This document shows, piece after piece, positions 1 to 62,583 of a DNA stretch of 64,000 nt. The notes beneath the pieces were generated by a model. That model was not told the DNA's origin, ran no database searches, and saw only the letters and a list, made by a program, of their open reading frames with translations. The stretch spans positions 15,934,001 to 15,998,000 of the forward strand of contig OZ231126.1 of NCBI GenBank assembly GCA_965153355.1. Direction: 5' to 3'. Source of the DNA: Flaccisagitta enflata (taxonomy: Eukaryota). Position numbers and translations under genes: made by a program. How positions within the stretch are numbered: the first letter of the stretch is position 1; the number at the start of each line of letters is the position of its first letter.

Positions 1-505
1 GGATGATTGATTAAATGGATGATTGATTAAATGGATGATTGATTAAATGGTTGATTGATTAAATGGTTGATTGATTAAATGGTTGATTGATTAAATGGTT
101 GATTGATTAAATGGTTGATTGATTAAATGGTTGATTGATTAAATGGTTGATTGATTAAATGGTTGATTGATTAAATGGTTGATTGATTAAATGGTCGATT
201 GATTAAATGGTCGATTGATTAAATGGTCGATTGATTGAATGGTCGATTGATTGAATGGTCGATTGATTGAATGGTTGATTGATTGAATGGTTGATTGATT
301 GAATGGTTGATTGATTGAATGGTTGATTGATTGAATGGTTGATTGATTGAATGGTTGATTGATTGAATGGTTGATTGATTGAATGGTTGATTGATTGAAT
401 GGTTGATTGATTGAATGGTTGATTGATTGAATGGTTGATTGATTGAATGGTTTTGTGGTTGATTGTGTTTGTGTGGTTGGTTGATTGATTGAATGGTTGA
501 TTGAG
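1..505. repeat. 16-bp tandem minisatellite (GATTGATT[A/G]AATGGTT)n, runs off the window edge
   Basis: Directly visible array; it produces the spurious [12 protein letters not shown] repeat tail of ORF 187..876. Confidence 0.95.
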
Positions 506-575
506 TAGCAGAACGCTTGACTGATTGAATGGTGGGCTCTTCGCTCGCGACGCAGAAACTGTTGCTTTCGTTTAC

Positions 576-3500
576 CTATGAGCTCGTCTGTGATTTTAGG
601 CATCGTAACCAGGAGATGTCCCGTGACCTGCGACCGTTTGGCGGTGCTACTATCCGGCTTGACTTCCGTGTGAAGACGAAGTTGAAGAATTTTGCCCTTC
701 AAAGTGACGCGAACGTAGAAAGGTTGCACGTCCACATCCACCAGTGACGTATCCATGTGCTGGCAATGGAAAGTTGTACGTAGTCGTGTGCACACGACTC
801 TATAACCCGCTATGTCCGTCGGTCCGTCGGACCGTACACTTTGCTTTTTTTGGGGCATTTTTAACGTTTTTTGCATTACCGCTCCTGCCCAAACTCTTGG
901 TTAGGCTTTTTTATTACTGCCCCTGCTCACCCGTTCGCGACTTCGGTATTTGGCCTTGTTTGGTTTCTACCACGAATTATGATGAGTTTTAATTGTGGTG
1001 ATTTTTCCGAGCCAATTGATACAATCTTCAGGGGTGTATAAAGTGAATTGGCATTTGATTTTTACCCTCGCTGCGCCCCCCCCCCCCATGGTCTTTGATT
1101 TCCTTCTCCGGCCAGTCGAGGAATGGCTTGATATTACCTAATACTACCCATTTCTACCCCATAAAGCGTGAATATGGTAAAATTTGAGTCAATATAGTAT
1201 TAAATTGTAATATGGTAATCAAATATCACCTTTTTGAAATACCAAAAGTGTCAGATCCGCAATTTTTTTTTTCTTTTCAAGCCTTTGATTTTTTCTCCCA
1301 TCTCCCAGCCCTCTGATTTTATTCTCCTTCCCCTCACGGGAGGGGGGAAGAGGGAAGGAATGTTCAACTACATACACGCCTGACAATCTTTGATCCATCT
1401 AGTCCCGTCTCTTAAAGGAATAAAAGAAAAGAACTCGGCGTTTTTGGGGCAAAGCGTGAAAATTTGCAAACAGGGTCAGTTTTTCGTGCTGAACAAGACT
1501 AGATGGGGTACACGTCTGATTTTTTAGTGTACCCCATTCAAAAACGCGTTTTTTCTTCAAAAAAATACTTTGAAGAGGCGCTGACGCCAAACCCATCGAC
1601 AGATGACTATAAAATTTTAGGTGAAGAAAAATATGCCTTTTTTCTACTTGCATGCAAAATTTCAGCAAAATCGTTTCAGTAGAAGCGAAGATATTGCCGT
1701 ATAAAGTCTAGGCCTATTTTCAAAAAAAGGGCTATGTTTCAATTTTGGGGTAAAATTGTGTTTTTTTGAGCTGGAAGTCTGAAATTGGTTTCACTCATTT
1801 ATATTACCCTCATTTACCCTAAATACAAAAAAAATTGAAAAAAATCCATGTTTTTTTCATTTTTTGGGCCAAAAAAAAAAACAAAAAATCAACCTTCAAA
1901 ATTTAGGCCTGATTTTCAGAAAGGGCTAGTGCAAGGAAAATATGAAAATCATTGACGCCCACTAAGGGAATCTATTGTCATAAAGTGTACCAACTTATTC
2001 CCAAACTTTCAGAGGGGTACATTAACCCAAAAGGACAAAATTTAATTTCAAAGAATTAAAAAAAAAACGACCCAAAATTTCGCATTTTTAGACCCCCAGA
2101 GACATTTGGTAACACTACGGCCAAACGCTTCAACCGATTTGCCTAAAATTTTGCATACAAGTCCTAATATGTTAGGGGCATATCTGAGCAAAATTTCAGC
2201 TTACTAATCAAACATCTAATTTTTCCATATATCAAAAAGGGTAAAAAAATGCTGAATTTTGGTATTTTTGCTGTAGACTTTGAAATGATTTTTTGTCTTT
2301 TTGGGTTAATGTACCCCTCTGAAAGTTTGGGAATAAGTTGGTACACTTTATGACAATAGATTCCCTGAGTGGGCGCCAATGATTTTGATATTTTTCTTGC
2401 ACTAGCCCTTTTTGAAAATCAGGCCAAAATTTTGAGACCCAATTTTGTGGTTTTTTGGCCATAAAATGGAAAAAACATGGGATTTTTTCAAATTTTTTTG
2501 TTTTTAGAGTAAATTAGGGTAATATACGCAAGTGAAATCAATTTCAGACTTCCAGCTCAAAAAAACACAATTTTACCCCAAAATTGAAACATAGCCCTTT
2601 TTTTGAAAATAGGCCTAAACTTTAAACGACAATATCTTCGCTTCTACTGAACCGATTTTGCTGAAATTTTGCATGCAAGTAGAAAAAAGAAATATTTTTC
2701 TTCACCTAAAATTTTATAGTCATCCGCCAATTGGTTTGGCGTCAGCGCCATTTCAAAGTGTTTTTTGGGCAAAAAAACGCGTTTTTGAAAGGGGTACACT
2801 AAAAAATCAGACGTGTACCCCTTCTAGTCTTGTTCAGCACAAAAAACTGACCCTGTATGCAAATTTTCACGCTTTGCCCCAAAAACGCCGAGTCCTTTTC
2901 CTTAAATCCTAGACTAATCGTGTTAAAGCTCTCACTTTAAAGACGTGAACGTCCAGTTGGAATGCTTCTCCATCGACATCCTCAAAAAGATTAAATTCAA
3001 CTTTGGCTTCGTTACAGTTGATGGCGCTGCCGTCGTCTTTGAAGTAGTTCCTCGGGGCTTTTGGTTCTTTCTTCTTCTTCCCTTTGTTTTCATCCTTTTC
3101 TTTTTGCGCTTTGATGTGATGGTGTGTTTCGATACGCGACTCCGGGGTGTAAGGCAATCTGTTTACGCCCCAGGGAAGACCCCAGAATGATCATTGTTTT
3201 AACAACGATTCTCATATGTTGTCAAGTTCAAAAACGAATTTTCTCTCTTCTGTTTGGCCTAAGGATGTGACTTTCTCTCAAAGACAAAAGATTACAGATG
3301 TCCAATAGATGCGTCCTCTTAAGAGGGAAGATATGCAAAGAAATTCTTAAAAATCTCATTTAGCAAAATCAACGGATCGATATAACTACAGATGGACTAC
3401 TTATGTTACAGAGATGCGATGACGCATCAAGACCACAAATTACCTTTCTTCTTGGTATTCCTTCTCCTTGGCCTCTCGAAATTTTTCCAGCGTCTCTTCA

Positions 3501-4472
3501 TCCCCTCTTTTTCCCAACTCCTCTTCGATCTCTTCGATTTTCCGTTTTCCTTCTTCTCTTTTGGCGAAAAAGTCCTTTTCCTCGTTCCGCTTTTCCTTCC
3601 ATTTCCGCTCCGAGTTTTGAAGGCGTTTGGCGATGGCGTCTCGTTCTTGACACGCTCGGATTCTCTCGCGTCGGCCGACTTCGCCTCCGTCCAGCTTCTG
3701 CAGTTGCGGCAGCGTAGAAATGACGTAATCGCGGTAGTCGGGGTAATCCACGCATGGGTTACCCGTCAGATACATCTCTTCTAGGAATATGTTGCCCTTT
3801 AGCGACGTTAGCGAAGTCAGTTCTCCGATGAAATTCGCCGTGAGGTCGAGTTTGCGCAGATTTTCGCAGCCCTTTTCAGGAAAGATGACAGAATGTTTGG
3901 CTTCATCTTATATGGATATGAATAGGGGATACATTAAAGAATGAATTTTGACGGATATTAGAGTATTTTGTACTATCAGCAACGATGCAGTGTACTGACA
4001 AAGTGTCGATGAAGATAGCGATGACGATGAGATTGACCGTTAGGAGATCTATAAATAATTAGTCTGAATCAATTACCAAAGCGATGATGATAAGAATTTG
4101 AGAAGAATCAAAGCTAAGCCTCGTCGATTTGCCGGATGAACTTAGGGAATGCATGTATCCAAGGAATCATTGATGTAAACTCATCTCATGACGAGTACAA
4201 ATTCCTTTTCAAATTACCTCTAGGTTTTCTATCCTTTCGACATTGTTGAGAGCCAAGTTGAGGTACTCCAGCTGTTTCATTCGCGATAGGTTTTCGATTT
4301 TGGGAATCAAATTGCTTTGTAAATAGAGAATTTTCAACCCTCGACAAATTTTGTCCAGACACTCAATTTTTTCGATGTCCGATTGATGCAATGATATCTC
4401 TTCTAGCGTGGAAACACAGCCTTCGTTGTGCTCTGCTCTTTTCCTCACCAACTCTTCGGTTATGCGAACCAT
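576..4472 (-). CDS. LRRC6: Dynein axonemal assembly factor 11 / LRRC6 (LRR + LRRcap + CS-like domain); 3' end unresolved
   Basis: Exons 4472-4218, 3871-3444, 3158-2936 and 759-~576, with phase-consistent GT-AG junctions (0,2,0). Translation [136 protein letters not shown] matches recalled LRRC6 motifs. The donor at 575 is tentative. Confidence 0.93.
780..962 (+). mobile_element. Short HINE/Helentron-like non-autonomous repeat in LRRC6 intron
   Basis: TAGTCGTGTGCACACGACT hairpin + CTATAACCC + (GTCC/GTCG)n, ending GGCCTTGTT. Related copies lie at ~6580, ~9520, ~31420, ~31720 and 32993-35130 (-). Confidence 0.6.
1029..1382. mobile_element. hAT-type MITE with 8-bp TSD
   Basis: Imperfect TIRs CAGGGGTGTATA / CATACACGCCTG, flanked by the exact direct repeat ACAATCTT (1021-1028 and 1383-1390). 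An 8-bp TSD and CAG termini are typical of hAT elements. Confidence 0.85.
1402..2914. mobile_element. Foldback/large MITE with ~650-700-bp inverted arms, in LRRC6 intron 3
   Basis: ~1416-2100 is the diverged reverse complement of ~2230-2910 (ORFs 1399..1668- and 2658..2912+ mirror each other). TA flanks the putative ends. Confidence 0.88.
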
Positions 4473-4695
4473 CGTTATGTTTTATGACAGTATCGGGAGC
4501 GATCGACGTTAATTGGGAAAACTAATCAGTCTTTTTAGGTCTTTGTTGCCAGTTTTCTACGAATGATATGTAAAGAAATTTCTTCGAACATATTATCTAT
4601 TTCCAAACTTGTGAATACAACATATGATGGCACATAATCATGGAAATCATTAGCAATCGGCTTTCCCTAAGTCGTATTATTGTTTATCAGATTTT

Positions 4696-5606
4696 TCATC
4701 CGGTGGGCATGTCAACTCTTGGTCCGGCGGTCTTTGGTTTGTTCGGGTTGTTTTCCAGGAGCCAATCTGCCAGCCAGGTAACTGGATCCGAGGGCTTCTT
4801 CTTGCACAATGAGGTGAGGCCTTTCAGGAGGGTTGGGTTGACGTAAGCCTCCAGGTAATCTTTTGCCGCTTGAGCTGAAGGAATAGTGAAAGTTTTGATA
4901 AGTTCAGTTGCCTTTTAACGTGTCATCATAAGGTATCAACAGGTATAAAGAAAAGATTTGCTTTACGTTCAAGTCACCTGCCCAATGCCACTTACCAATC
5001 GGTATTGGTTCCAGAACTGAGTCTGGGAAGAAGAATCTAACTTCCCTCTCCGCACTCGAGAGACTGCTGCTTCCATGAACGGCGTTCTTCTGCTCATCCG
5101 TTCCATAAATCGCCCTCAAGCTGGGATGATATGGGCAAGAAATGGAATTTACAAAAGTAACAAAACTACTATTTGACATGACTTCTAAAAAAATCAGGAG
5201 TGATGTGACATAAGAGGGTCCTGTATGAGCATCTAACCGACTAATCCCATCATGGTCACCTGTCGGGATGCGTGGCTTTGGCTTTGATGCTGTTGGTCGG
5301 TCCAATCAAATCGCGCCAGAAGCTGATGGCCTTTTCTTTGGACAGCACCATGACGATGACCGGCGCCGATGACATGAAGGCGACCAACGCCGGGAAAAAG
5401 AGCTTGCCGTAATGCTCCGCGTAAAAGTCGGAAGCTTGTTCCGGCGTCAGATGCACTCGGCGTCTTTGGAGTATGGTGAAGCCAGTACGTAGGATGATGT
5501 CTTCGATCTCTTCTGCCTTTTCGATGGCATCTGGTTTGACGATCGCCAACGTGCGCTCCACAAAGATCTGCGGAGGCTTCATTAAGTCCATCTCACCATC
5601 GGCCAT
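4696..5606 (-). CDS. NME5: Nucleoside diphosphate kinase homolog 5 (NDK domain + Dpy-30 motif)
   Basis: Exons 5606-5260, 5120-4996 and 4874-4696 (phases 2,1). PPQIFVERTLAIVKPDA..FYAEHYGKLFFPALVAFMSS..HPDSLRAIYGTDEQKNAVHGS..AEREVRFFFP..AKDYLEAYVNPTLLKGLTSLCKKKPSDPVTWLADWLLENNPNKP. Confidence 0.95.
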
Positions 5607-5939
5607 CTTGTAACGTTGATGCTTTGTCTTGGTTTTGACTTTCTTTAATGGTTATTTGTGAAAAACTGAGTGCACGAATAATTCGCGTTTTAAAAGAAGA
5701 AAAAATTACAGATTACAGAATGCTATCACCGCAAATTAAGGCTGTCATTGTAGTGCTGATTATCTTGTGTGTACTCTAAAAAAGTGATTCCTGCTCTGCC
5801 AACGATTGGAGATGGCTCCATCTGAGTCAATCATTTGACGTGGATTTGCATTCTCGTCTAGTGCGAGTTCATTTCCGTCGAGGAACGCCCTAGAGATCTG
5901 ATAAAGACTCAATAGATTAAGTATAAAGCGAGTTATGAT

Positions 5940-12879: not shown

Positions 12880-13208
12880 CAGTCAGTGGACAAAACACTA
12901 TAGGTATATATATCATACCGTTGGCTCTGATTCAAAATACTGCTTATAAACAAAATACTGCTTATAAACAAAATATTATATGCAACAACCAGTTGCTCAA
13001 ATTATAGCCGGCTGTAACAAACATAATGTTGTACGCAACAATTGGTTGTAAGAACTGCAGCCGGCTGTAATGCTCCAATTTTGTAATATTACAGCCGGGT
13101 GTAATTTCGACAGCTAGTTGTTGCATACAACATTTTGTTTATTATCAGTATGTTGTTTCAAAGTCAACTGTATGATATATATACCTATGGTGTTATGTCC
13201 ACTAACTG
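12880..13208. mobile_element. Palindromic Tc1/mariner-like MITE downstream of the kringle-membrane gene
   Basis: CAGTCAGTGGACA...TGTCCACTAACTG|TA with inverted arms over ~140 bp (mirrored ORFs 12813..13007+ and 13114..13410-). Confidence 0.8.
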
Positions 13209-13354
13209 TACATAAAGCCTCGTCAGATGCACTTGCACGCAAGCTGTGCAGATAAAAGAGGTCAATCTCTTTCATCTCGTCAAAATGAAAAAAAAAGAAG
13301 AAATGGAATGGCACCGACGTTTGGAAAAGAAATAGAAGAATCGACTGTGCGGTT

Positions 13355-16300
13355 TTAATACAGAACATCATTTTGTCTGTACGACTCGGCGTATTCTCCT
13401 GCCGATCCATACAAAAGTTTGTTGATCGTTCTTGCCGCCTCGTAGGAATCGGACGACCTCGTGGCCGATTCGTATACCGATGAAGTCGCGAGGCTGTCCA
13501 TCTGCCTCTTATCTTTATTCATTCGGCGCCATTGTACCATCGTCGTTACGGCTTTGGCTATGGTCGTTATGACGATGATGACCAGGAAGGCCGCGGTGAA
13601 TATCATCGCAGCGGAATGCTCTTTCCAGCTTCTGACCATGATGCCCACGAAGCAAATGAAGAGAATAACCTTATAAATGAGATCCACTATGTTACAGTAA
13701 TCAGTACTTTGAAGACCGAATGTTTAAAGCATTGCATTATCCTATATCAAATTCTCAATGCACTTACCTGAGGTGTGAATACATAGCGCATGGCATTGCC
13801 CATCACGATCAGATCAAAAATGACCCAGAGAATGTAGAAATTGAGCAGGATGCTCAACGCGATGACAGCGCCAATTTCGTCATCGAGGACATCTTTCAGC
13901 CTCAGAATGATCGTCATATGGCTCATAGAAAAGAATGTGAGGGTGGTAACCAAAGCAACGAGTCCATTCTGAAATGACGGAAGAAAGAATGAGGTTATTT
14001 TCATGTTTTAGTTGAGAAAATATGCTCGGTTGCTTCGTTGGTCAATGGTCATCACGCGCACATTCAATGTCACTTGTAATATGCGAAAATTCTGTGCTTA
14101 CCTCCAGAAAGCAATGATATGGAACATTTTGCCTGAGTTTTCTATCTTCGATACTCTCGTCTTTGGTCTTTCTGTAATGCCACACTTTGCAAAGGGCGAC
14201 GATAAACGAAGCAAATGCGGCAAACAGTATCATGGCGAACGAGACTTGCTCATACTCTCTATCCCAAAGAAACATCCAGGATATCCATAGGACCAAGGCC
14301 AAAATGAGGGTGAGAGCCAGTTGCCACTGCAAAATATCGGGATGGTAATATCGAAATTCCTTCCACGCCACGACGCTGCGACAACAGGCGACAGAAAATG
14401 TAAACCCAATCCCCAGGAGCAACCAGAGATAAGTAATGGTCCAGATGGAAACCACGGCCCATGGTGCCGGATAAAAAAGTGTCGATTTATCTGACAGCAA
14501 AACGTCAGAGGCTCGATAGAACATGGCACCGGGACCGCATTCATTTTTCGATTCGCTGCAATATTCCCATCGCTTGGCGGTGGTGGTGAAGCACCATGGC
14601 CGATCCCGGATTCCAACTTTTTTAGACCTCGGGTTTCGACAGTAGTTTTTTGCAGCCTCTGTCGATCCATCCCTGATAAGACAAATATGGTTGAACTAGT
14701 TGTTGGAAATGGCATGAAAGGTATTTCGTATGATGCTCATTCTCTTAAGTTATCTTTATCATTTGCAAAGTTGCAAAGCAGGTTTGTGGACGTCAAGGAG
14801 TAAAGGTCAATGGATTTAAAAAACAGATTAAGAGCCGTGTGTATTGGCCAACGCAGTGCGCTTGTCCTGAGCCCCTTGTGCTGATAATATGCAGTATGAT
14901 GGCAAGGATTAAAAAGCATTTGATTTTGACAATGATATAGAGCAAGGCCGCATACACGGCCAATTTCGACGGCATGCGTTTTGGCAGATGCAGAAATGCC
15001 CAAAAAGATTCTTACACTTGAACATGACGGACGGACGAACATTTCCTCCTTTATGGAGGAAGAGGCAGTTAATGTAGCCTGTTGCAGTGATGGTAAAGGT
15101 AAACTCAAGCTTAACAAAACAATTGAGGTTTGATGAAGATACTGGCAATAGCCAATCAAACATTTGTGATTATAAGGATCACAGGTTTCCTTTGTGGGGG
15201 CAATTCAAGATCAGAAAATTACAAAGACTTATCACAAGACGCAACCACATGCGAAACGCGTCCAAAACGGAGAAATGAGTTGTAGCTTCGTAGATAAAAA
15301 AGAAACATGCCATACGAACCCGAATCTTATTTTGTTGAAAAGAAAGGGAGGAAGAGTTAAAACTTTATTTGCTACAGTTTTTGAATCTTCTTTATGAATG
15401 AAGAACTGGTTCGGAAGCAATTATCTTACCTAAATGAGACATCTTCGCCAAAATACTCATGTTTGTGGGGCACTTGTTTTACCCATTCCTGAGTTAGAAA
15501 GATCGAATTTGATATTTTGATAATGCAATTTAGCCTCAGGCCTTTAACGATATGTACTGAAGAATGAGTCTGCCACCTTTTTAACTTTACCGTAGATGTT
15601 GTCTACACTTGAAAATCCGAGATAAGTCAAAGCTTGGAGATATATGAAAAATATATATGAAAAAATATATATTAATTTATAAGATTTATTGATTTAAATA
15701 TTTGAATAATGTAAAATAATCATAAAGAATTGAATAAAATGATAGCAAAGATTTTTTCTTGTCTGAATAACTCCAATTGCAAAACTAGCTTTAGATTTAT
15801 ACTTGTGATCCGTGACCCTTACTGAGACCATTGCAAAAGCTTTTAAAGGGGCAGTGCCTTGAAAAATTTGAATTTGAATTTGAATTAAAAAAAAATTTGA
15901 ATTTGAATTAAAAAAAAAAATTTTAAGTAAAAAAAACTAAAATGAAAGATTTATTTCTCGTTGGCGTTTTGTTTTGTCTTTCCGATTTTTTGCATTGTCA
16001 ATGACAACTATCAATAGTTCTTTTAATAATAAATAGAATATTGTTTTGGTGGAGAAATGGGTCTTAAGTGCACCAATTTTAATGATCTCCATTGTCTGGC
16101 TTCAGTTCATAACTGATAAGTTCTACTAAATAAAACCAAAATTTTGATTCAATAGCCTACCATATTTTTTGTCCAAAAGCATTGCATACTCAGTTTTATT
16201 TCATATTTAGAATTGGTATCTTAGTTCTGAGTTCCCCCTATATTTCCAAGTCTAGTCGGCATCTACTGTATGTATCGTGGCTTATCGTACCTGACATGGC

Positions 16301-16557
16301 AGCCCTGTCCTGGTAATCGTCTGATAACCTCCATAGTCTTCACCATTAGTAGCTACATAGCAATCAGTGAAAGCGTTAAGGATGTTTTCGCGTCCGAATT
16401 TGGAGGAAAGCAAATGTAGCATTGCGGTTGTTCCCAAAACTAAAATGGTCAAGGCGTACAAGATGCAGTGTAAAATTTTGCTTCTTGAACCACATGCGCA
16501 GCAGTTTTTCGATTTGGTTTTGAAATCATCGTTGGATACTCCTTGCTGGTGCCACAT
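13355..16557 (-). CDS. ~470-aa multi-pass membrane protein (TspO-like uncharacterised animal family) with an inserted kringle domain
   Basis: Exons 16557-16291, 15488-15430, 14672-14102, 13968-13768 and 13669-13355, all GT-AG and phase-consistent (0,2,0,0). Spliced protein: TM1, then DCYVATNGEDYGGYQTITRTGLPCQ|EWVKQVPHKHEYFGEDVSFR|DGSTEAAKNYCRNPRSKKVGIRDRPWCFTTTAKRWEYCSESKNEC (6-Cys kringle), then FYPAPWAVVSIWTITYLW..WMFLWDRE..FLE|NGLVALVTT..RYVFTPQ|VILFICFVG, with about 7 further hydrophobic segments. Confidence 0.85.
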
Positions 16558-18371
16558 GTTGTCGAGTTGCTTGAGCTAGTTTACTTGTTTATTGGTCGAT
16601 TTGACGATTTGTGATATTGGTTTATTGGTTTTTCTGTCTGCAATGTGTGTCATGCAAATTGATTGATGAAGCGGTTGAAAAAAATCCTATATTTTTTCTT
16701 CGCTAAATGGCCATTATAAAGTGCCTACAAATTTTGTTTTTAATTGGAGCAAAAAGTTTTATCCGCTTCAGGTAGTATCGAAGTATCCATTTCTAGTTTT
16801 GGTGGAGTGGAATTGGGATAAGTGGGAGTCAAGGCTTTTTATGAAAAAAAAAACGTTTTAGCGGATTTCTTTCGCTTTTGTAATTCATCGATAGGAAAGG
16901 GCGTCTTCAAGTAAGATAGTCCGAATTCCTGCCTAGGTAGATTTACTTTGGAATAGGTAATGATAGGGATTCTAAACGATGACAATTTTTTGGTTCTTTT
17001 GCATAATTTAAGGCGTTGAAAGTTGTGTTGATGTTGTGAGGAATGATCATGAAAGTGTTCGAATAATATAGATCATATTGTCATGGATGATGTAGAGCTT
17101 TACCCTCGTGAGAGTCACCGACGAATATGTGCTGGTGAGTTAATCGCTTGCGGGTTGTCATAAAGTTTTCCATCACCCATATATATGCATATTTCGTCTG
17201 TGAAAAACTGGAAATCCGCTGTATGGCAAAGATGGATTTGATTGCGTGCGCCTGGCTAATGAAGTTGAAAAAAAAACTGAGTCGCGGATTATTGCGAGCG
17301 TGATGATAAAAAAAGTGCCCACGGCATTCCTCTCTCTATTGAATTGTGTAGATAAAATAATTCTTTCTAGATGTCTTAGATCTGAATTCTGATGGTCGAC
17401 TGAGCCTGGAACAAAAATGAGAGCAGAAAAAGAAAAATGCAGTCACGGCTGAGCGAAACCGTATTTGCAGGGATTCGAATCCATTCTGTACTTTCCAGAG
17501 CAAATAGACGTGGAAGTTCATCTTAAACCTCACCTCTTTTCTATGCCTTTTCGTTTTCCTATCTTTGGTAGAAAAAAAAAAGAAAGACGCTGGTGAGAAA
17601 GGAAGTTATAGATGTAAAATGAGTGGTTTGCAAATTTTAAAGGCTAACTTTCTCAGTATTTATCACTTTCATTAAGAAATTTTTTACTTTTTCTCTGTGG
17701 GAGGCTTGTAAAGATAAGGGATGCATCGGAGAAAAACTATCGTAAATTCTTGGAAACGACAATAACAAAGAAGTGGTACCCAGTTACGAGGCTCAAATTT
17801 CATCAGTCATTAAAAATTCAGCTTCCCTAGCCTTGAGAAAAGTATAAATATTTGCGCAAATTAATGCTGAGATATTTTCTACATTCCTGTTCCAAAATAC
17901 AAGCTAGAAGAGAAAAGGATCTGACCTCAGAAATGAGGCTAAATTCAGCTAAAAACGTACGTCTGAAAAAGCGAGATGGAATACATGGGAACTGGCGTGT
18001 GATACTCCTAATATGTCTCACAAAGGTTCACTTATCTCAAAATTGACCAGTAATACTGAATTACTAATACCTCAAGATTTCATCCTCTTTTCAGATTCCA
18101 CTTCACCATCCGTCGCGTCGATGTGGTAATTCTAGTTTTCATCGTCTCACAATTATTCGCCCAGACATCCATCCATCCATGCAGTCCATCCATCCATCCA
18201 TCCATGCAGTCCTTCCATCCAGCCATCCGCCCCTCCTTCTAGCCATCTATGAGCCCTTCCATCCAGCCATCCGCCCATCCTGCCTCCTTTATACCCATGT
18301 GCCTAACGCGAATGTGATTCCACGGCAAAAACCTCTCCGCCTGCCGATTTTCACACAAAACACTCATTCAT

Positions 18372-18637
<266 letters not shown>

Positions 18638-19339
18638 TACAATATGAATATACATCTGTGACACTAAAAAGCCTTCGAGCTGACGTCATGGGGGTTACAT
18701 CCTCTGGGTGATCTTTCATGATCCGTTTTGCCTCTCAATCCCTCGGAAGAAAATCGAAAAATCCTTGGAAAAGGAGTGTAATCCTCATCGTCATCTCCCT
18801 TTTTCAACTCGGCCATTCTCGTTTACATCTTGCCTTTGACTCCACCTGCTAAGTCCTCAAGAGAACGGGAGAAAAAGAGAGAATAGTAATAGATAGAACA
18901 AAAGGAGAAAAAAAGAAAAAAGGGAAAAAAAGAAGTCGGCCTTGTAGGATTGATAAAAACGTTTTTTTCGAGAGAACTCTCATTAAAAAAAAAAAAAGAA
19001 AAACAAAGAACCAGAAAACACGGAAGAAATTGGCTTTGACGGTGCCTTTTTTTAGTAATCACACCTATTTTAGGCAGAGGCGTGAAACCCAAAAAACCGA
19101 ATCGCCTTTTTTAGACATTCGAACGTTTCCAAGGCCAGGAACAAACATTATATGCGCCAGTTAACTTCATTTCACGTCTATTTTTAGAGGATCACAAGTC
19201 CTGAAAACGCCGAAAAGTCATTTAAAGTTGAAGATCGTGCGCCTCGCTAATTACAATCGTCGATGACTTCTTACGACTTTCGTCATCGTCGTTTATCGTC
19301 CTCAGCGTCGTCATCGTCGTCTTCATCAGCGATATCCTT

Positions 19340-22249
19340 ATGGCGTTCTTTTGTCCGGCTCGCGCGCGCCATCACCCGAAAAAGGCCCGCGAGAACGGAG
19401 ATGGCGTGGAAGTCGCTTCCACCTCCGGAGGCGGCTTTGGTGGCGGACGCGGCGCCTTGACCCGCTCGTGGACTAAACGCAAAATCACCGGAAGTACAAG
19501 CATCGAGACGCTCGTGCTAGTGGGCTTGGAGTCATCGGCCACTTCCGAAGCCACGGGCGCTCAGGCTGGTGGCGGTGGTATGATTCCTGGTGGCGCCTAC
19601 GCGGACGCCATGCGGACCGTCACGCGCGCCCACGTGGGAGAAATGGAAGACGAAGTGAGCGTCAGCGTCGGACAAACGGTGGTCGTCATTTTTCGCGATG
19701 ACGATTGGCTGTTTGTCGTGACGGATAAAGGGACGGAGGGATTTATCCCTCGCGAGAATTGCGTTAGATCGAAGAAAATGCGCGGGAGCGGCGTAAGTGG
19801 CGGCGCCACGCGATCGGACGATAACGGAAATGATAACGCCGGTGCCGGCGTCATTTCCCCACCTGGAGATCAAAATGGAAATAAAAACAATAAAAGACTT
19901 CCCACGGCTAAAACCAAGGACAATGACGTAAACCAAAGACTGAAAGCCATTCAAGAAGATCTGAAAAAACATTCCAAATCTGAGTCTGCTACTGACATAA
20001 CAACGACGACTACAACAACAACCGCCGTTTTGCATGAGAGAACTTCCTCTTCCTCTTCCAGCGGTCAACGAACCGAACCGCGACTCAATGAGCGTGACCA
20101 TGACCACACCCAACATGCGACGGAAAAAGAAAATACTCGCGACAAGAATTCTTGTCAAACCAATTCTTCTTCATCATCCTGTGATAATTGTCAACATCCG
20201 TCGAATCCTTCCTTACCTAGTTCCCAGTTTGACACCGCCCCCTCTTCCAAGACCCACCCCAACCGGCCACAGCAAACAAATCCCAATCCTCGCGTCGATT
20301 CTCATGTCTTTCAAAATTCATCGGGAAAGATTGAATTGTCTGACACGCTCGCCAAACATATCGGTTCCAATACGAGGAAAAGTCCGAAGTTAAAACATCA
20401 ACAACAGCAGCAGTATCATCAACAACAACAACAGCAGCAACAACGAATGACAGATTCCGCAAAATTAAAGAATCGTAGACCATCGGGCGGCACTCGATCG
20501 CCATCTTTTGTCTCTCCACTACAACAGTGCATCAAAGAAGGCCGTTTAAAAGAACAAGACTCTCAAAGACTAACCACTTCCATGACATTAAATCGCCGAG
20601 CGGGCCACGACGATCCCTCCACTCCATCACGGCCGCAACACCACGCCAGTCATCAAGTTTTGTTTGATAGAGACGCCGATGGGGGACGCGGGCGAGGAGG
20701 CGCTTCCGCCGTCTTTCACACGCCGCAACATCGACCTACATCTACCGGTGGTAAACCCGACTCGCGAGTTGTGGGCGTGGTTCCGCCCCACGTCGCTCCC
20801 TCATCTTTGACAACCCCTCAAAATGCTCAACATCCACTTCAGTTACAGCGCGGCTCCGACGGCAGTTTCCGGCCGGCGCCTTTATCCCACGTTACCACCG
20901 ATTCTTCCAGCGGATGCCATGTTGACACCTCCTCCTCATCCATGCCATCGCCGCCTCAACTGGCGTCGACGACGCCGGATATGTGGGCCGGTGTTGGTGG
21001 CGTTGACAGTGGCACTGGCGCTGACTGCTCCGATTCTGAGGCAGCTTCTACATCATCGTCCTCTACGCGAGAAGTGCGTCAAACCTGGCGTCAGCGGAAG
21101 ATGGAAATTCGCAGCGGCGGAAAAGACGTGAGGGACGCCAGTTCTTTGGAAGATCGCACCGACGTGGAGACGCCCCACGTGGATCCTGGATGCATGACGT
21201 TGCCGGCTTCATTCCGAGGTGGAAAATCCGGTTCTTCCGCATTTTCTAAACCACCCATCAACAGCGATCAATTGGCCCGACGTCAACGCCCTCGGGAAGG
21301 CGATCCGAAGTTTAGTCAACAACATCAAACGCACAATATCCCTTCTTCCTCATCCACAAACATCCATAATCCCATCAGTTCACATCCTCAGGTCGTCGAT
21401 GATATTCAAAGAGCGACCAGAGAGTTGAAGGAAAAACTCGTTCTTTCTGAGACCAACGGCGACAAAAGGAAAACAAAAGTCATCCAGGAAAATATTCCTG
21501 TCGTGAGTGGGGGAGTCGGCGGTGGGGGTGGCAGGTCAGGCGTCAATGGAGTTGGGGTGGTTAGCGCTGGTGGTGGGAAACATGGGAAAAAGACCGTAGC
21601 CATGACTAGAAAATATTGGCTCATACCGGAAAACCTCAACATATCCGAGATTAAGATTTTTTCGCGCGTGCAGCATGGTGACGCGGATGCGCTGTGGGAC
21701 TTTTTCGCCGCGGAGGAGAACGACGTTAGTCTCGTCGCCGGCGAGTCAGTGACGGTTTTGAACGACGAGGATCCAGATTGGACTTGGGTATTGAAGAGAG
21801 ACGGAGACGAAGGTTTTGTGCCCGCCAATCATCTCGGCCCTAGACGTCAAACGCCTCAAGATGACGACGAAGACGAGGAGCATTACCTTCACCCGTCGCC
21901 GTCCAAAAGAACCCCTCCAGCTGGCAAAGTCAGCGTTATCGTCCATAGTCACGAAGGAGACGTACCGGCGATGGATATCGTTAAAGAGGACCCGACATCT
22001 CCTTCGGGAGTTCTCACGCGTCTCGACGACACGTTTCTTCACGATCACTTCGGCGTCGTCAGACTCATCGCCGAGTTTGACTTTCAGGATCCACGAGTGC
22101 CGGATTTCGTCGTCAATAAAGACGAATTTTTACTCGCCGATATGGTCGGCCAGAGCGACGAAGAATGGTTGTGGGTTACCGCTTGCTCCTCCGGCCAACA
22201 AGGATGGATTCCTAAAAATTTCGTCAAGCAGATTTCCTACGTCGATTGA
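19340..22249 (+). CDS. Dlish: Triple-SH3 adaptor, Dlish/Vamana (Dachs ligand with SH3s) orthologue, intronless, 969 aa
   Basis: N-terminus MAFFCP and the motif KITGSTSIETLVLVGLE resemble recalled Dlish MAFLCP../RITGSASIETLVRVGIE. Three SH3 domains: ..DDDWLFVVTDKGTEGFIP.., ..ENDVSLVAGESVTVLNDEDPDWTWVLKRDGDEGFVP.. and ..EEWLWVTACSSGQQGWIPKNFV. A long S/Q/T-rich linker separates SH3-1 from SH3-2. Confidence 0.85.
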   Translation: MAFFCPARARHHPKKARENGDGVEVASTSGGGFGGGRGALTRSWTKRKITGSTSIETLVLVGLESSATSEATGAQAGGGGMIPGGAYADAMRTVTRAHVGEMEDEVSVSVGQTVVVIFRDDDWLFVVTDKGTEGFIPRENCVRSKKMRGSGVSGGATRSDDNGNDNAGAGVISPPGDQNGNKNNKRLPTAKTKDNDVNQRLKAIQEDLKKHSKSESATDITTTTTTTTAVLHERTSSSSSSGQRTEPRLNERDHDHTQHATEKENTRDKNSCQTNSSSSSCDNCQHPSNPSLPSSQFDTAPSSKTHPNRPQQTNPNPRVDSHVFQNSSGKIELSDTLAKHIGSNTRKSPKLKHQQQQQYHQQQQQQQQRMTDSAKLKNRRPSGGTRSPSFVSPLQQCIKEGRLKEQDSQRLTTSMTLNRRAGHDDPSTPSRPQHHASHQVLFDRDADGGRGRGGASAVFHTPQHRPTSTGGKPDSRVVGVVPPHVAPSSLTTPQNAQHPLQLQRGSDGSFRPAPLSHVTTDSSSGCHVDTSSSSMPSPPQLASTTPDMWAGVGGVDSGTGADCSDSEAASTSSSSTREVRQTWRQRKMEIRSGGKDVRDASSLEDRTDVETPHVDPGCMTLPASFRGGKSGSSAFSKPPINSDQLARRQRPREGDPKFSQQHQTHNIPSSSSTNIHNPISSHPQVVDDIQRATRELKEKLVLSETNGDKRKTKVIQENIPVVSGGVGGGGGRSGVNGVGVVSAGGGKHGKKTVAMTRKYWLIPENLNISEIKIFSRVQHGDADALWDFFAAEENDVSLVAGESVTVLNDEDPDWTWVLKRDGDEGFVPANHLGPRRQTPQDDDEDEEHYLHPSPSKRTPPAGKVSVIVHSHEGDVPAMDIVKEDPTSPSGVLTRLDDTFLHDHFGVVRLIAEFDFQDPRVPDFVVNKDEFLLADMVGQSDEEWLWVTACSSGQQGWIPKNFVKQISYVD

Positions 22250-23494
22250 GATACGGATATACATGAGAGAGGCAGTGAGAGGTGAAGTCGAAAACGACCT
22301 TACCTAGTGTTTAATTACTTTTTGACAACTTGCTCAATATCATACAGTGATTCAATATCAAATTGATTATCTCCGTCATCAATTTTTTTTTCTTCATTCC
22401 GACTGTATTTTTCTACATTCTTCAACATTTTACATGATTGTGCCATTTTCAAAGCTCAACTAAGCAGAAAACAACCTAGCCTTTGAATGTGTGGCGACTG
22501 TGGCGTTTCTCCTTGACGCGGGTTTAGTGTTTATCCTGTTTGCGACAGAAAGTAGCACGGTGCAATATTTTGTGTCGGCCTCATGCGATTTTTTTTATCA
22601 CGACCATTACTCCCCGGAAGAATTACCCAGTTTTACTGTTTAGAAAATCTTTTTTTTTTCGCTTCAGAGATTTAGTAATGATCGCCATAAAATCAGAGAT
22701 TCATATATAGGCGAGGCTTTTTATTTCATGCTGGATTAATAAATGACAAATCTATTTTCGCCGGCTACCGTCAAGTTAGTAATGAAAAGTTCCTCACATT
22801 CCGTCCTATCATGCAAACAAGTACTTAACTGGCCTAAATGTTTCTCGAGTCGCTTTCCAAAACAAATTTCTGTGAACGGGGCACTTGTTATTTTCTGACA
22901 AACATTCCATCCAGTATTTTCATACCAAGGTTTTTTTGTGGCACGATTTTTTTTAATCCTCGGTTCTTCGTTCGTCTTGTTAAAACAAAAAAACATATAT
23001 CTAAATGAACTAATCGTCTGTTATAAATTTGTCGTCTTGAAATTCATATCAATATGCAAATGTGGTAGTTTTTTTTAGTTTGAACTTTATATATAAATCT
23101 TTTGTTATACAATTTCAGTTCATGTTGATATTCTAAAAACTCGTTTCCTGAAGCGAAGCGCAACAAGTCACGCGGTTCCGGATAAAACAAATTGAAACTC
23201 TCCTCAGTTTTCTCTTCTTGCGACTAACACAGTGGGCGAAAGGTCGAAAGAATCTCTCCGGGGAAAAAAGTAAGTCGACCTAACTCCCTCTCCCTGCTCT
23301 CTATATTTCTTTCTCTCATTCTCCCCGGTCCCCACTGATTTTTTTCTGTCTGTTTGCCTGCCTACCCGTCTCTGTCTGCCTTCTTTCTATCTGTATGCCT
23401 ATCTGCCACCTGTCTGCCTCTCTGTCTGTATATCTGATTGCCTGCGGCTGTGTCTCGTTTTATCTTGGAAAATGGTGTCTGGTTAACTGTCAGT

Positions 23495-23689
23495 CTCTGT
23501 GTGTCTCTCTGTGTTACTGTCTCTCTCTCTGTTACTGTCTCTCTCTCTCTCTGCCTGTCTCTCGATCTGCCTGCCTGTGTCTCTCTCTCTCTCGATCTGC
23601 CTGCCTGTGTCTCTCTCTCTCTATCTGCCTGCCTGTCTCTCTCTCTCTCTCGATCTGCCTGCCTGTCTCTCTCTCTCTATCTGCCTGTC

Positions 23690-23765
<76 letters not shown>

Positions 23766-23821
23766 TCTCTCTATCTATCTATCTGCCTGCCTGCCTGTCT
23801 CTCTCTCTCTCTGCCTGCCTG

Positions 23822-23865
<44 letters not shown>

Positions 23866-23914
23866 CCTGCCTGCCTGTCTCTCTCTCTCTCTCTCTATCT
23901 GCCTGCCTGCCTGC

Positions 23915-23945
<31 letters not shown>

Positions 23946-23985
23946 CCTGCCTGTCTCTCTCTCTATCTGCCTGCCTGCCTGCCTG

Positions 23986-24072
<87 letters not shown>

Positions 24073-24129
24073 GCCTGCCTGCCTCTCTCTCTTTATCTGC
24101 CTGCCTGCCTCTCTCTCTTTATCTGCCTG

Positions 24130-24218
<89 letters not shown>
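23495..24218. repeat. Compound (TC)n/(CTGC)n microsatellite
   Basis: Directly visible. Confidence 0.95.
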
Positions 24219-24221
<3 letters not shown>

Positions 24222-24793
24222 CTCGGCTAAAACTTCGAAAAGAAAAATTATTGAAGAAAAAAAAATATGACAAGATAGCTTTTATCCTCCCTCACTGACG
24301 TCGGCTTATCAAGTCAAACTGAAGCTGATCTTCCTGTGCAACAATTCTGTAGGCGAGGGCCAGTTGGACCGTTGGTGTTCTTCTTCAATCTGTCATCTGC
24401 CGTCATCATCTTCAATTTCGATTTCGTGGTAGGCCTACACCTAGGCCGTATGGCGTTCACCTTTCCCATTAAATCTGTGCGTTTAACCCCCTACCGCTGA
24501 TCAACCACCCCCAAATCTCAGCCAGCTTGCTTTGTGTTTGATATAACTCCTTATTCTCTCCTCGACTCTCTCTTTATAGCCGCCAATTGAGCGATGCCAT
24601 CTTGAGTATATATAGCTTTTTTGAGCAGTGAAGATTTTTTTGGCACAGGGTGATTGAATTCGTGGCTTTTCTCTGCTCCAAAAGCCGCCTCTCTCCGAGT
24701 CTTAGTAATAGATATTTCTCCTCGGCAGTCCGTCCTCCCTCTGTGTCTCTCTGTCATCATAGCTGTCTTTTTTTTTTCTTTTTGTCTTCGTTT

Positions 24794-25085
<292 letters not shown>

Positions 25086-25442
25086 CTCACTGTCGTGGTT
25101 CTTGCTATTTTTTTGTCATTCGTCGAATTTTTCCTCTCAAAAAAGAGGCGTTGAATTAAAAGCGGTCGATTGATTCCACACCTGATCTTTGGGCCAGGTG
25201 AGTTTGGAACAATTCAGCTAGTCCAAACTCGGCGACAAAAACACGACCACAACTCTCAAGGACCGATTATCGACCTTGTGTTAGAATTACATACAAAACA
25301 AGAGGGGGCATTAGTACCATTGCAGATGTAAATTTAATTTGTGCCATGAAAGAGTGACTTGACTTCACCAAACATAAAAAGAATTATATGTGTTAGAAGA
25401 GATTACCAATTTTTCAAAAGAAGTTGTTAAATGTATTTTTGT

Positions 25443-43260: not shown

Positions 43261-62583
<19,323 letters not shown>

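Follow-up and report, generated by a model that had tools for sequence, protein, structure and literature searches.

The reverse strand of a stretch of the Flaccisagitta enflata genome (contig OZ231126.1, positions 15,934,001 to 15,998,000; "the window" below means this whole stretch of 64,000 nucleotides (nt), whose own numbering is used) carries at 16557-13355 a five-exon gene for a predicted membrane protein of 470 amino acids (aa), in which a complete kringle domain lies between the first two of eight hydrophobic segments. Gene, splicing and domain architecture, taken alone, are held with high confidence. We lean, with more reserve, towards the whole statement that adds to this gene and its architecture a docking or receptor-like role of the kringle protein. 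Both building blocks are known, and the combination of a kringle with a TspO-type protein appears to be undescribed. The gene also draws attention to an orphan, TspO-related family of eight-helix proteins found from rotifers and molluscs to fish and birds.

All four introns have GT..AG borders with pyrimidine-rich acceptors, and joining exons E1 to E5 (Table 1) leaves the frame open over 470 codons, the length of about 470 aa expected in the original prediction, which had been made from the letters of the window. The start codon (ATG, 16557-16555) is the first ATG of its stop-to-stop frame and the stop codon lies at 13357-13355. The small exon that had been proposed at 15488-15430 has exactly the coordinates of E2. 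A further one proposed at 14672-14525 begins where E3 begins and had been drawn too short: position 14525, four codons beyond the last kringle Cys, is not an exon end, and E3 reaches 14102. Since E3 is unbroken to 14102, a single continuous reading frame encodes the kringle end together with three membrane helices. The fusion of kringle and membrane body is independent of splicing, E3 alone carrying the last part of the kringle and helices 2-4. An alternative acceptor for E5 at 13687 (atag/TGG) with a shifted donor was rejected, as it requires a weak donor. No second copy of the gene was found within the 64-kb window.

Small shares of the stretch are present in five marine metatranscriptome runs, and three contig runs and the raw-read run X6 were aligned to it. 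A single 289-nt contig (X4 record 20) joins E1, E2 and E3 at the predicted borders (16421-16290, 15487-15429, 14671-14574), bringing together the joints 15487/16290 and 14671/15429. The E3-E4 joint (13968/14102) is found in X4 and in X2, the latter with a 185-nt contig that has no difference from the window. At the E4-E5 joint a contig overhangs by 8 letters at 13766, and 7 of these 8, with one mismatch, are those predicted by the acceptor at 13669. The donor CAG/GTAAGT together with this acceptor (AAG/GTT) keeps the frame, fits the overhang to that extent, and is crossed by a gap-free alignment to the protein family profile described below. Three of the four exon joints that the original prediction expected in RNA are thus seen joined, and the fourth is represented by the overhang. 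Contig depth lies on the exons and is zero across most intron bins. Spliced contigs cannot derive from genomic DNA. The contigs differ from the window at 21 places, and 15 of these changes are synonymous, whereas random change in the coding sequence would give 22% (binomial p 1.8e-6); within the kringle the count is 3 of 4. The gene is under purifying selection in several marine organisms.

A separate signal is found inside intron 1, at 16216-16275. The summed contig depth is very high there in all three metatranscriptomes (73-399 in bin 16150-16263) and is made of many short records, with 31-100 letters aligned, 2-5 mismatches and both strands represented. By eye, the segment resembles a conserved stretch of small-subunit ribosomal RNA, and Rfam gave nothing at gathering level over 13000-17000 and no match at 16216-16275. 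The signal probably reflects an abundant RNA of other organisms, matched over a short length by chance or through a repeat.

The kringle occupies residues 66-154. Between hydrophobic segments 1 and 2 lie 130 residues with exactly six Cys (66, 88, 120, 136, 147, 154), and spliced residues 63-150 align end to end, with matching Cys columns, to all four kringles in each of three shark HGFs (per kringle 30.1-42.8 bits in two of these proteins). These features agree with the complete six-Cys kringle read earlier from the sequence. Pfam was scanned with the contiguous exon translations of E1, E3, E4 and E5, the 19-residue E2 being left out. E3 alone hits the Kringle model (PF00051) with E 1.2e-5 and 26 bits over profile positions 47-75 of 79; this score is under the 34.3-bit Pfam cut-off because the remaining kringle lies in E1 and E2. 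It is the only Pfam match on the scanned exons that is not weak and far under its cut-off. Compared to the HGF kringles there is a basic insertion of 4-5 residues ahead of the PWC motif, which is kept in two other kringle-bearing sequences, P0008 and P0017. The kringle loop has no N-glycosylation sequon.

Hydropathy assigns eight hydrophobic segments to the protein, with the kringle after the first, in agreement with the body of about seven helices proposed to follow helix 1 and the kringle. A phmmer search with helices 2-4 against 1.84 billion representatives returned seven proteins: P0006 (100% identical, same gene), the close fragments P0007, P0008 and P0009, and three kringle-less members (E 1.4e-5 to 6.1e-5) of a family typified by zebrafish si:dkey-29d8.3 and si:ch211-161h7.5. 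A profile search in the range 57-557 aa, which scored the 7,999 candidates sharing most words, gave 165 proteins, of which 120 were listed, nearly all of these being 280-340 aa long and annotated "uncharacterized". Among the matches listed are proteins of echinoderms, a hemichordate, amphioxus, lamprey, sharks, bony fish, birds, molluscs, an annelid, a brachiopod and rotifers. With hmmsearch, a profile of 62 kringle-less members scores the window protein at 120.4 bits over residues 167-422 (profile positions 44-293 of 306), crossing E3 to E5, and hhalign pairs it with the family at 98% probability. It retains 20 of the 41 family columns that are conserved at 90% or more; among those lost are several Asn within the membrane and the W/A/N positions in helix 5. 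A quick-method tree leaves it unplaced, its end branch measuring 5.37 substitutions per site. Judged by these comparisons, its membrane body belongs, as a very divergent member, to a metazoan family that is uncharacterised. No Pfam model specific to the eight-helix family was found, and the literature search found no functional study of it, with one paper naming a single member once. Searching the ESM Atlas with helices 2-4 gave scores that were all below 0.9; unnamed clusters from rotifers and echinoderms, together with a bacterial one in which 15% of members carry TspO_MBR, can serve as leads at most.

Relatives link this family to TspO/MBR. PF03073 matches 16 of the 62 family members at E<=0.1, and all six members that were re-tested are above the 24-bit Pfam cut-off (26.1-32.4 bits), the match running from profile positions 9-31 to 144 of 145. 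The AlphaFold2 model of the relative P0018 (mean predicted local distance difference test score, pLDDT, 93.9) has eight long helices and a short loop helix. Compared with 48,161 PDB representatives, it finds first the TSPO of Bacillus cereus (4ryi_A) with a root-mean-square deviation of 4.0 and a Z of 11.4, a value that the tool's own note places within the chance range for helical bundles. The alignment covers 149 of 151 TSPO residues over model residues 17-206, and the match stands two Z units over the next row, a designed helical protein. Foldseek gives several TSPO chains with TM-scores of 0.61-0.65 on TSPO length and probabilities of 0.72-0.97, at weak E values of 0.7-3.2. A sequence search of the PDB with the family profile found no TSPO, its two rows (E 0.53 and 1.3) being at chance level. 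Given the weak Foldseek E values and the chance-range Z, the fold link rests on the agreement of Pfam and structural results and not on either alone. The eight-helix family is, from these matches, assigned as TspO/MBR-related, and the model suggests that helices 1-5 make up a TspO/MBR-type bundle, with three more helices after it. The uncharacterised animal family with TspO-like features that had been proposed for the membrane body is recovered here by the profile score, by hhalign and by the Pfam and structural matches of relatives to TspO proteins.

The distribution of charges and sequons suggests on which side the kringle lies. The N-terminus has 5 Lys or Arg, the loop joining helices 4 and 5 has 7 and the tail 10, and the predicted outer loops are acidic. 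The loop between transmembrane helices 1 and 2 (TM1-TM2 loop) carries an NxS/T sequon in 58 of the 62 kringle-less relatives and should therefore face outward. We infer a topology with the N-terminus inside, the kringle outside rather than in the cytosol, where it would have been at odds with the ligand-binding module first proposed, and the C-terminus inside. This exoplasmic side would be the cell exterior or the lumen of a secretory organelle. In alignments the kringle falls between helix 1 and a conserved stretch of the loop ahead of helix 2. The mapping against kringle-less homologues called for at the outset thus puts the insertion point in the TM1-TM2 loop, ahead of that stretch, which in the P0018 model is a short helix (residues 52-58). 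The TSPO structural match includes helix 1; the kringle would therefore be inserted inside the first loop of a TspO-type bundle, the loop that presumably caps the ligand pocket of TSPO. The 31-residue N-region and 19-residue hydrophobic core argue for helix 1 being an anchor, and the cluster C19, C20, C22 just before it could be acylated. Helix 8 is followed by a tail of some 66 aa, residues 405-470, which contains six Tyr and extends about 40-45 residues beyond the family consensus as read from the alignment.

The architecture is not confined to the window. Two sequences of other organisms, the 126-aa fragment P0008 (59% identity) and P0017 (71%), lie on short contigs that lack annotation. 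As in the window, both have the kringle end and the membrane body start in one open reading frame (ORF); the exon borders are the same (R/DG at the acceptor, FLE/V at the donor), and Cys residues and motifs of the kringle are conserved. Across helix 4 and the loop after it, at least five distinct sequences of the kringle-bearing sub-lineage overlap. No annotated member bearing a kringle is present among the 120 listed of the 165 profile matches, the Kringle flag being found on fragment P0008 only; with 7,999 candidates scored and 45 matches unlisted, the absence of such members is unproven. A search with E3 for longer fused relatives (334-2000 aa) gave only the three shark HGFs, via the kringle. 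Two scans of JGI metagenome contigs for the loci of relatives yielded 66 and 34 pattern-matched stretches, none of them confirmed. None of the main texts covered by the literature searches describes a TspO-type protein with a kringle. All this is in line with the earlier expectation that the architecture is not common in databases.

The exon structure bears on the origin of the insertion. Both kringle borders fall inside exons, that of helix 1 and kringle in E1 and that of kringle and loop in E3, and introns 1 and 2 interrupt the kringle itself, the first in phase 0 and the second in phase 2. The gene is therefore unlike the product of a recent insertion of a symmetrical phase-1 kringle exon, and the "shuffled" module of the original prediction has to be given up in the sense of clean exon shuffling. 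Either the flanking introns would have been lost or the kringle would have arrived in another way.

We favour the hypothesis that a real gene, transcribed and selectively maintained, encodes a 470-aa eight-helix protein whose kringle stands in the helix 1-2 loop, just ahead of the short conserved helix of that loop and directly above the mouth of the TspO-like bundle. The kringle would be an ectodomain to which proteins dock, the role that kringles have elsewhere. The tail and the remodelled bundle would anchor the protein and relay the binding of the kringle, or sort by it. The product may thus be a receptor-like or an adhesion or cargo-docking membrane protein, and not a classical small-molecule binder of the TSPO type. 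The data above show the structure of the gene, the splicing of E1 to E4, the identities of the domains, their conservation and purifying selection, while we infer the topology, the location, the type of ligand and the signalling of the protein.

Several observations count against this hypothesis. The lysine-binding site of plasminogen kringles presumably depends on an acidic pair before PWC, a feature of some kringles only; by eye this pair is not evident and a basic stretch is in its place, making classical lysine binding by this kringle doubtful. The bases of the topology are hydropathy and the positive-inside rule, and the location may be the plasma membrane as well as the endoplasmic reticulum, Golgi or lysosome. 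Helix 1 of the window protein lies outside the profile alignment, which begins at profile position 44, and could therefore have been gained anew as a signal anchor, or even be a signal that is cleaved off. PF03073 has no match at E<=1 on the exon translations of E1, E3, E4 and E5; the protein is therefore placed in the eight-helix family and not in TspO/MBR itself, the TspO link running through relatives only. The chance-range Z, the weak Foldseek E values and an E4-E5 joint seen in RNA only as an 8-letter overhang with one mismatch belong on the same side. As for expression, the raw-read run X6 has 0 reads on the gene and is uninformative, metatranscriptomes may include DNA, the RNA contigs are short (<=309 nt), and neither a full-length transcript nor the protein itself was seen. 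They are mostly 90-95% alike to the window, several coming therefore from alleles or close relatives.

The same evidence can be read in other ways. The kringle exons might belong to another gene or transcript, be joined by a chimeric assembly or be part of a decaying pseudogene, as could be suspected from an extremely divergent membrane body and from a gene that is in no annotated protein set, its matches being exon-sized ORFs from unannotated contigs. We consider such an artefact very improbable and largely refuted: the kringle end and helices 2-4 are in one exon, both in the window and in independent contigs of relatives, where kringle Cys and motifs are conserved, a single RNA contig joins E1, E2 and E3, the frame is open over 470 codons and the differences are mostly synonymous (15/21). 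The location leaves more room for an alternative. An exoplasmic kringle may equally face the lumen of an organelle, and the protein could be a secretory or endolysosomal resident using its kringle in cargo binding, quality control or sorting instead of a surface receptor. The Tyr-rich tail, which could hold sorting signals, and the kringle loop devoid of N-glycosylation sequon would suit such a role. Against it, no retention motif was recognised in the protein, and kringles are not known to act elsewhere than outside the cell. This possibility is unlikely in our view, without being negligible.

The bundle itself could still be the working part, binding a sterol, a tetrapyrrole or another lipid in a TspO-like manner, with the kringle working as a lid or regulatory plug that controls access or reacts to a protein from outside. 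The position of the insertion, in the TM1-TM2 loop just before the short conserved helix, is suggestive in this respect, the more so if that loop caps the ligand pocket, as in TSPO; helices 1-5 map onto the whole TSPO in the structural alignment of P0018, and the motifs PAxW..SIW..Y and W.FLWDRE are retained. The window protein has, however, lost half of the most conserved columns of its family, including intramembrane Asn and the helix 5 W/A/N triad, its exons have no Pfam TspO match and even the kringle-less family has no known ligand. We give a gated binder a minor share of the probability. A bolder version, quite improbable in our estimate, would be a new kind of receptor in which an extracellular protein bound to the kringle opens or reshapes a sterol- or tetrapyrrole-type pocket, or the reverse, and the Tyr-rich tail reports to the cytoplasm. 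If true, it would be the first protein of the TspO superfamily gated by a protein ligand and would offer a way to the function of an orphan metazoan family whose range includes vertebrates.

Table 1. Features of the kringle gene in the window; the kringle coding span is calculated from the exon map.
Feature	Position	Strand	Description	Evidence
E1	16557-16291	-	267 nt, 89 codons	sequence, translation, hydropathy, RNA contig X4 record 20 (16290-16421)
E1, predicted content			31-aa cytosolic N-terminus (C19, C20, C22), helix 1 (about residues 32-50), linker, first 24 residues of the kringle (C66 to C88-Q89)	
E2	15488-15430	-	59 nt, phase 0 in, phase 2 out; middle of the kringle with W..Q.PH.H	translation, AG/GT borders, RNA joints, alignment to HGF kringles
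E3	14672-14102	-	571 nt	translation P0001, Pfam Kringle E 1.2e-5, phmmer, hhalign 98%, fragments P0008/P0017
E3, predicted content			C-terminal part of the kringle (NYCRNP, PWCF, WEYC, last Cys 154), conserved loop stretch, helices 2-4, basic cytosolic loop	
E3, motifs in helices 2-4			PAPW..SIW..Y; W.FLWDRE	
E4	13968-13768	-	201 nt, 67 codons; predicted helices 5-6 (NGL...; ...RY.FTPQ)	joint 13968/14102 in X2 and X4, family profile alignment
E5	13669-13355	-	315 nt including the stop, 104 codons; predicted helices 7-8 and tail	acceptor AAG/GTT at 13669, profile alignment, 8-letter overhang, contigs over 13349-13623
Kringle coding span, first to last Cys codon	16362-14537	-	residues 66-154; split by introns 1 and 2	coordinates by arithmetic from the exon map

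Just 3' of the kringle gene, 13016-13143 (+) has a weak match to MIR6217, a plant microRNA precursor (39.8 bits against a gathering level of 110). The segment is built of inverted repeated units with mirrored ORF translations and is likely a hairpin-forming repeat or a miniature inverted-repeat transposable element, not a microRNA gene. About 2.7 kb upstream of the kringle gene and in divergent orientation, 19232-22249 (+) is a single open frame of 1005 codons with low-complexity Ser/Gly/Gln runs and ends that look SH3-like by eye. The exons at 45084-53607 (+) and 61456-62583 (+) are those of a homologue of RIC1, the partner in the RAB6A guanine nucleotide exchange factor (RAB6A-GEF); exon 51004-52071 is 57-61% identical to mollusc and brachiopod RIC1, its best matches, and has no close annotated relative. 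Judged from this exon and from the marine origin of the RNA runs, the source would probably be a marine invertebrate of spiralian type. The ORFs of 187-5651 (-) look by eye like a tilB/LRRC6-like ciliary assembly protein with leucine-rich repeats and a CS domain and like an NME5-like nucleoside-diphosphate-kinase domain. Two long ORFs of 431 and 287 aa, gag-like and repeat-rich in appearance, at 57938-59233 (-) and 59352-60215 (-), may be the remnant of a retroelement. Long (CT/GA)n and related microsatellites (for example 18068-18734, 23284-24298, 24551-25213 and 52281-52892) account for spurious SLSL.../ERER... ORFs on both strands.

Among known proteins, the members of the si:dkey-29d8.3 family are the nearest to the window protein. 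They share with it the predicted number and order of helices, and also four motifs: (T)PAxW..SIW..Y, W.FLWDRE, an NG with which helix 5 starts, and RY.(F/T)TP. They are about 280-340 aa long, with a short glycosylated TM1-TM2 loop and no kringle, whereas the window protein has an 89-residue kringle in this loop, a tail longer by about 40-45 residues and 20 of the 41 conserved columns. TSPO proteins (PF03073; structures 4ryi, 4uc1, 8e7x) match helices 1-5 of the P0018 model in fold, at the Z of 11.4 given above. They are made of five helices and about 150-170 aa, in contrast to the eight predicted helices, ectodomain and tail of the window protein, which has no PF03073 match.

Kremen, ROR1/2 and MuSK are single-pass proteins whose kringle belongs to an N-terminal ectodomain, beside WSC/CUB, Ig/Frizzled or kinase domains. 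Like them, the window protein would display its kringle on the outer face of the membrane, presumably for protein binding. It differs by having the kringle in an internal loop of a polytopic protein with eight hydrophobic segments, and Pfam scans of E1, E3, E4 and E5 found no WSC/CUB, Ig/Frizzled or kinase domain. The same scans gave no match to a G protein-coupled receptor (GPCR) family, to a seven-transmembrane receptor domain or to GPS/GAIN, and GPCR-like Foldseek rows of the P0018 model are weak (probability <=0.3).

Kringles are listed among the ectodomain modules of adhesion GPCRs in PMC12716839, and PMC2246102 describes amphioxus adhesion GPCRs with N-terminal kringle and somatomedin B domains. 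These invertebrate receptors also have a kringle on a multi-pass membrane protein, and kringles have therefore been shuffled onto polytopic scaffolds before. The original prediction, which knew of no kringle in the TspO-like family, stands on this point and has to be widened for its list of kringle hosts, extracellular proteins and single-pass receptors, by the precedent of these GPCRs. In the amphioxus proteins the kringle belongs to the N-terminal ectodomain of a seven-transmembrane receptor, and none of Kremen, ROR, MuSK and these receptors is known to have it within a loop of the membrane domain. The window protein would instead carry it between two helices of a TspO-like bundle, an RNA-supported case of a globular, disulfide-rich module lodged inside a loop of a polytopic protein rather than at its end.

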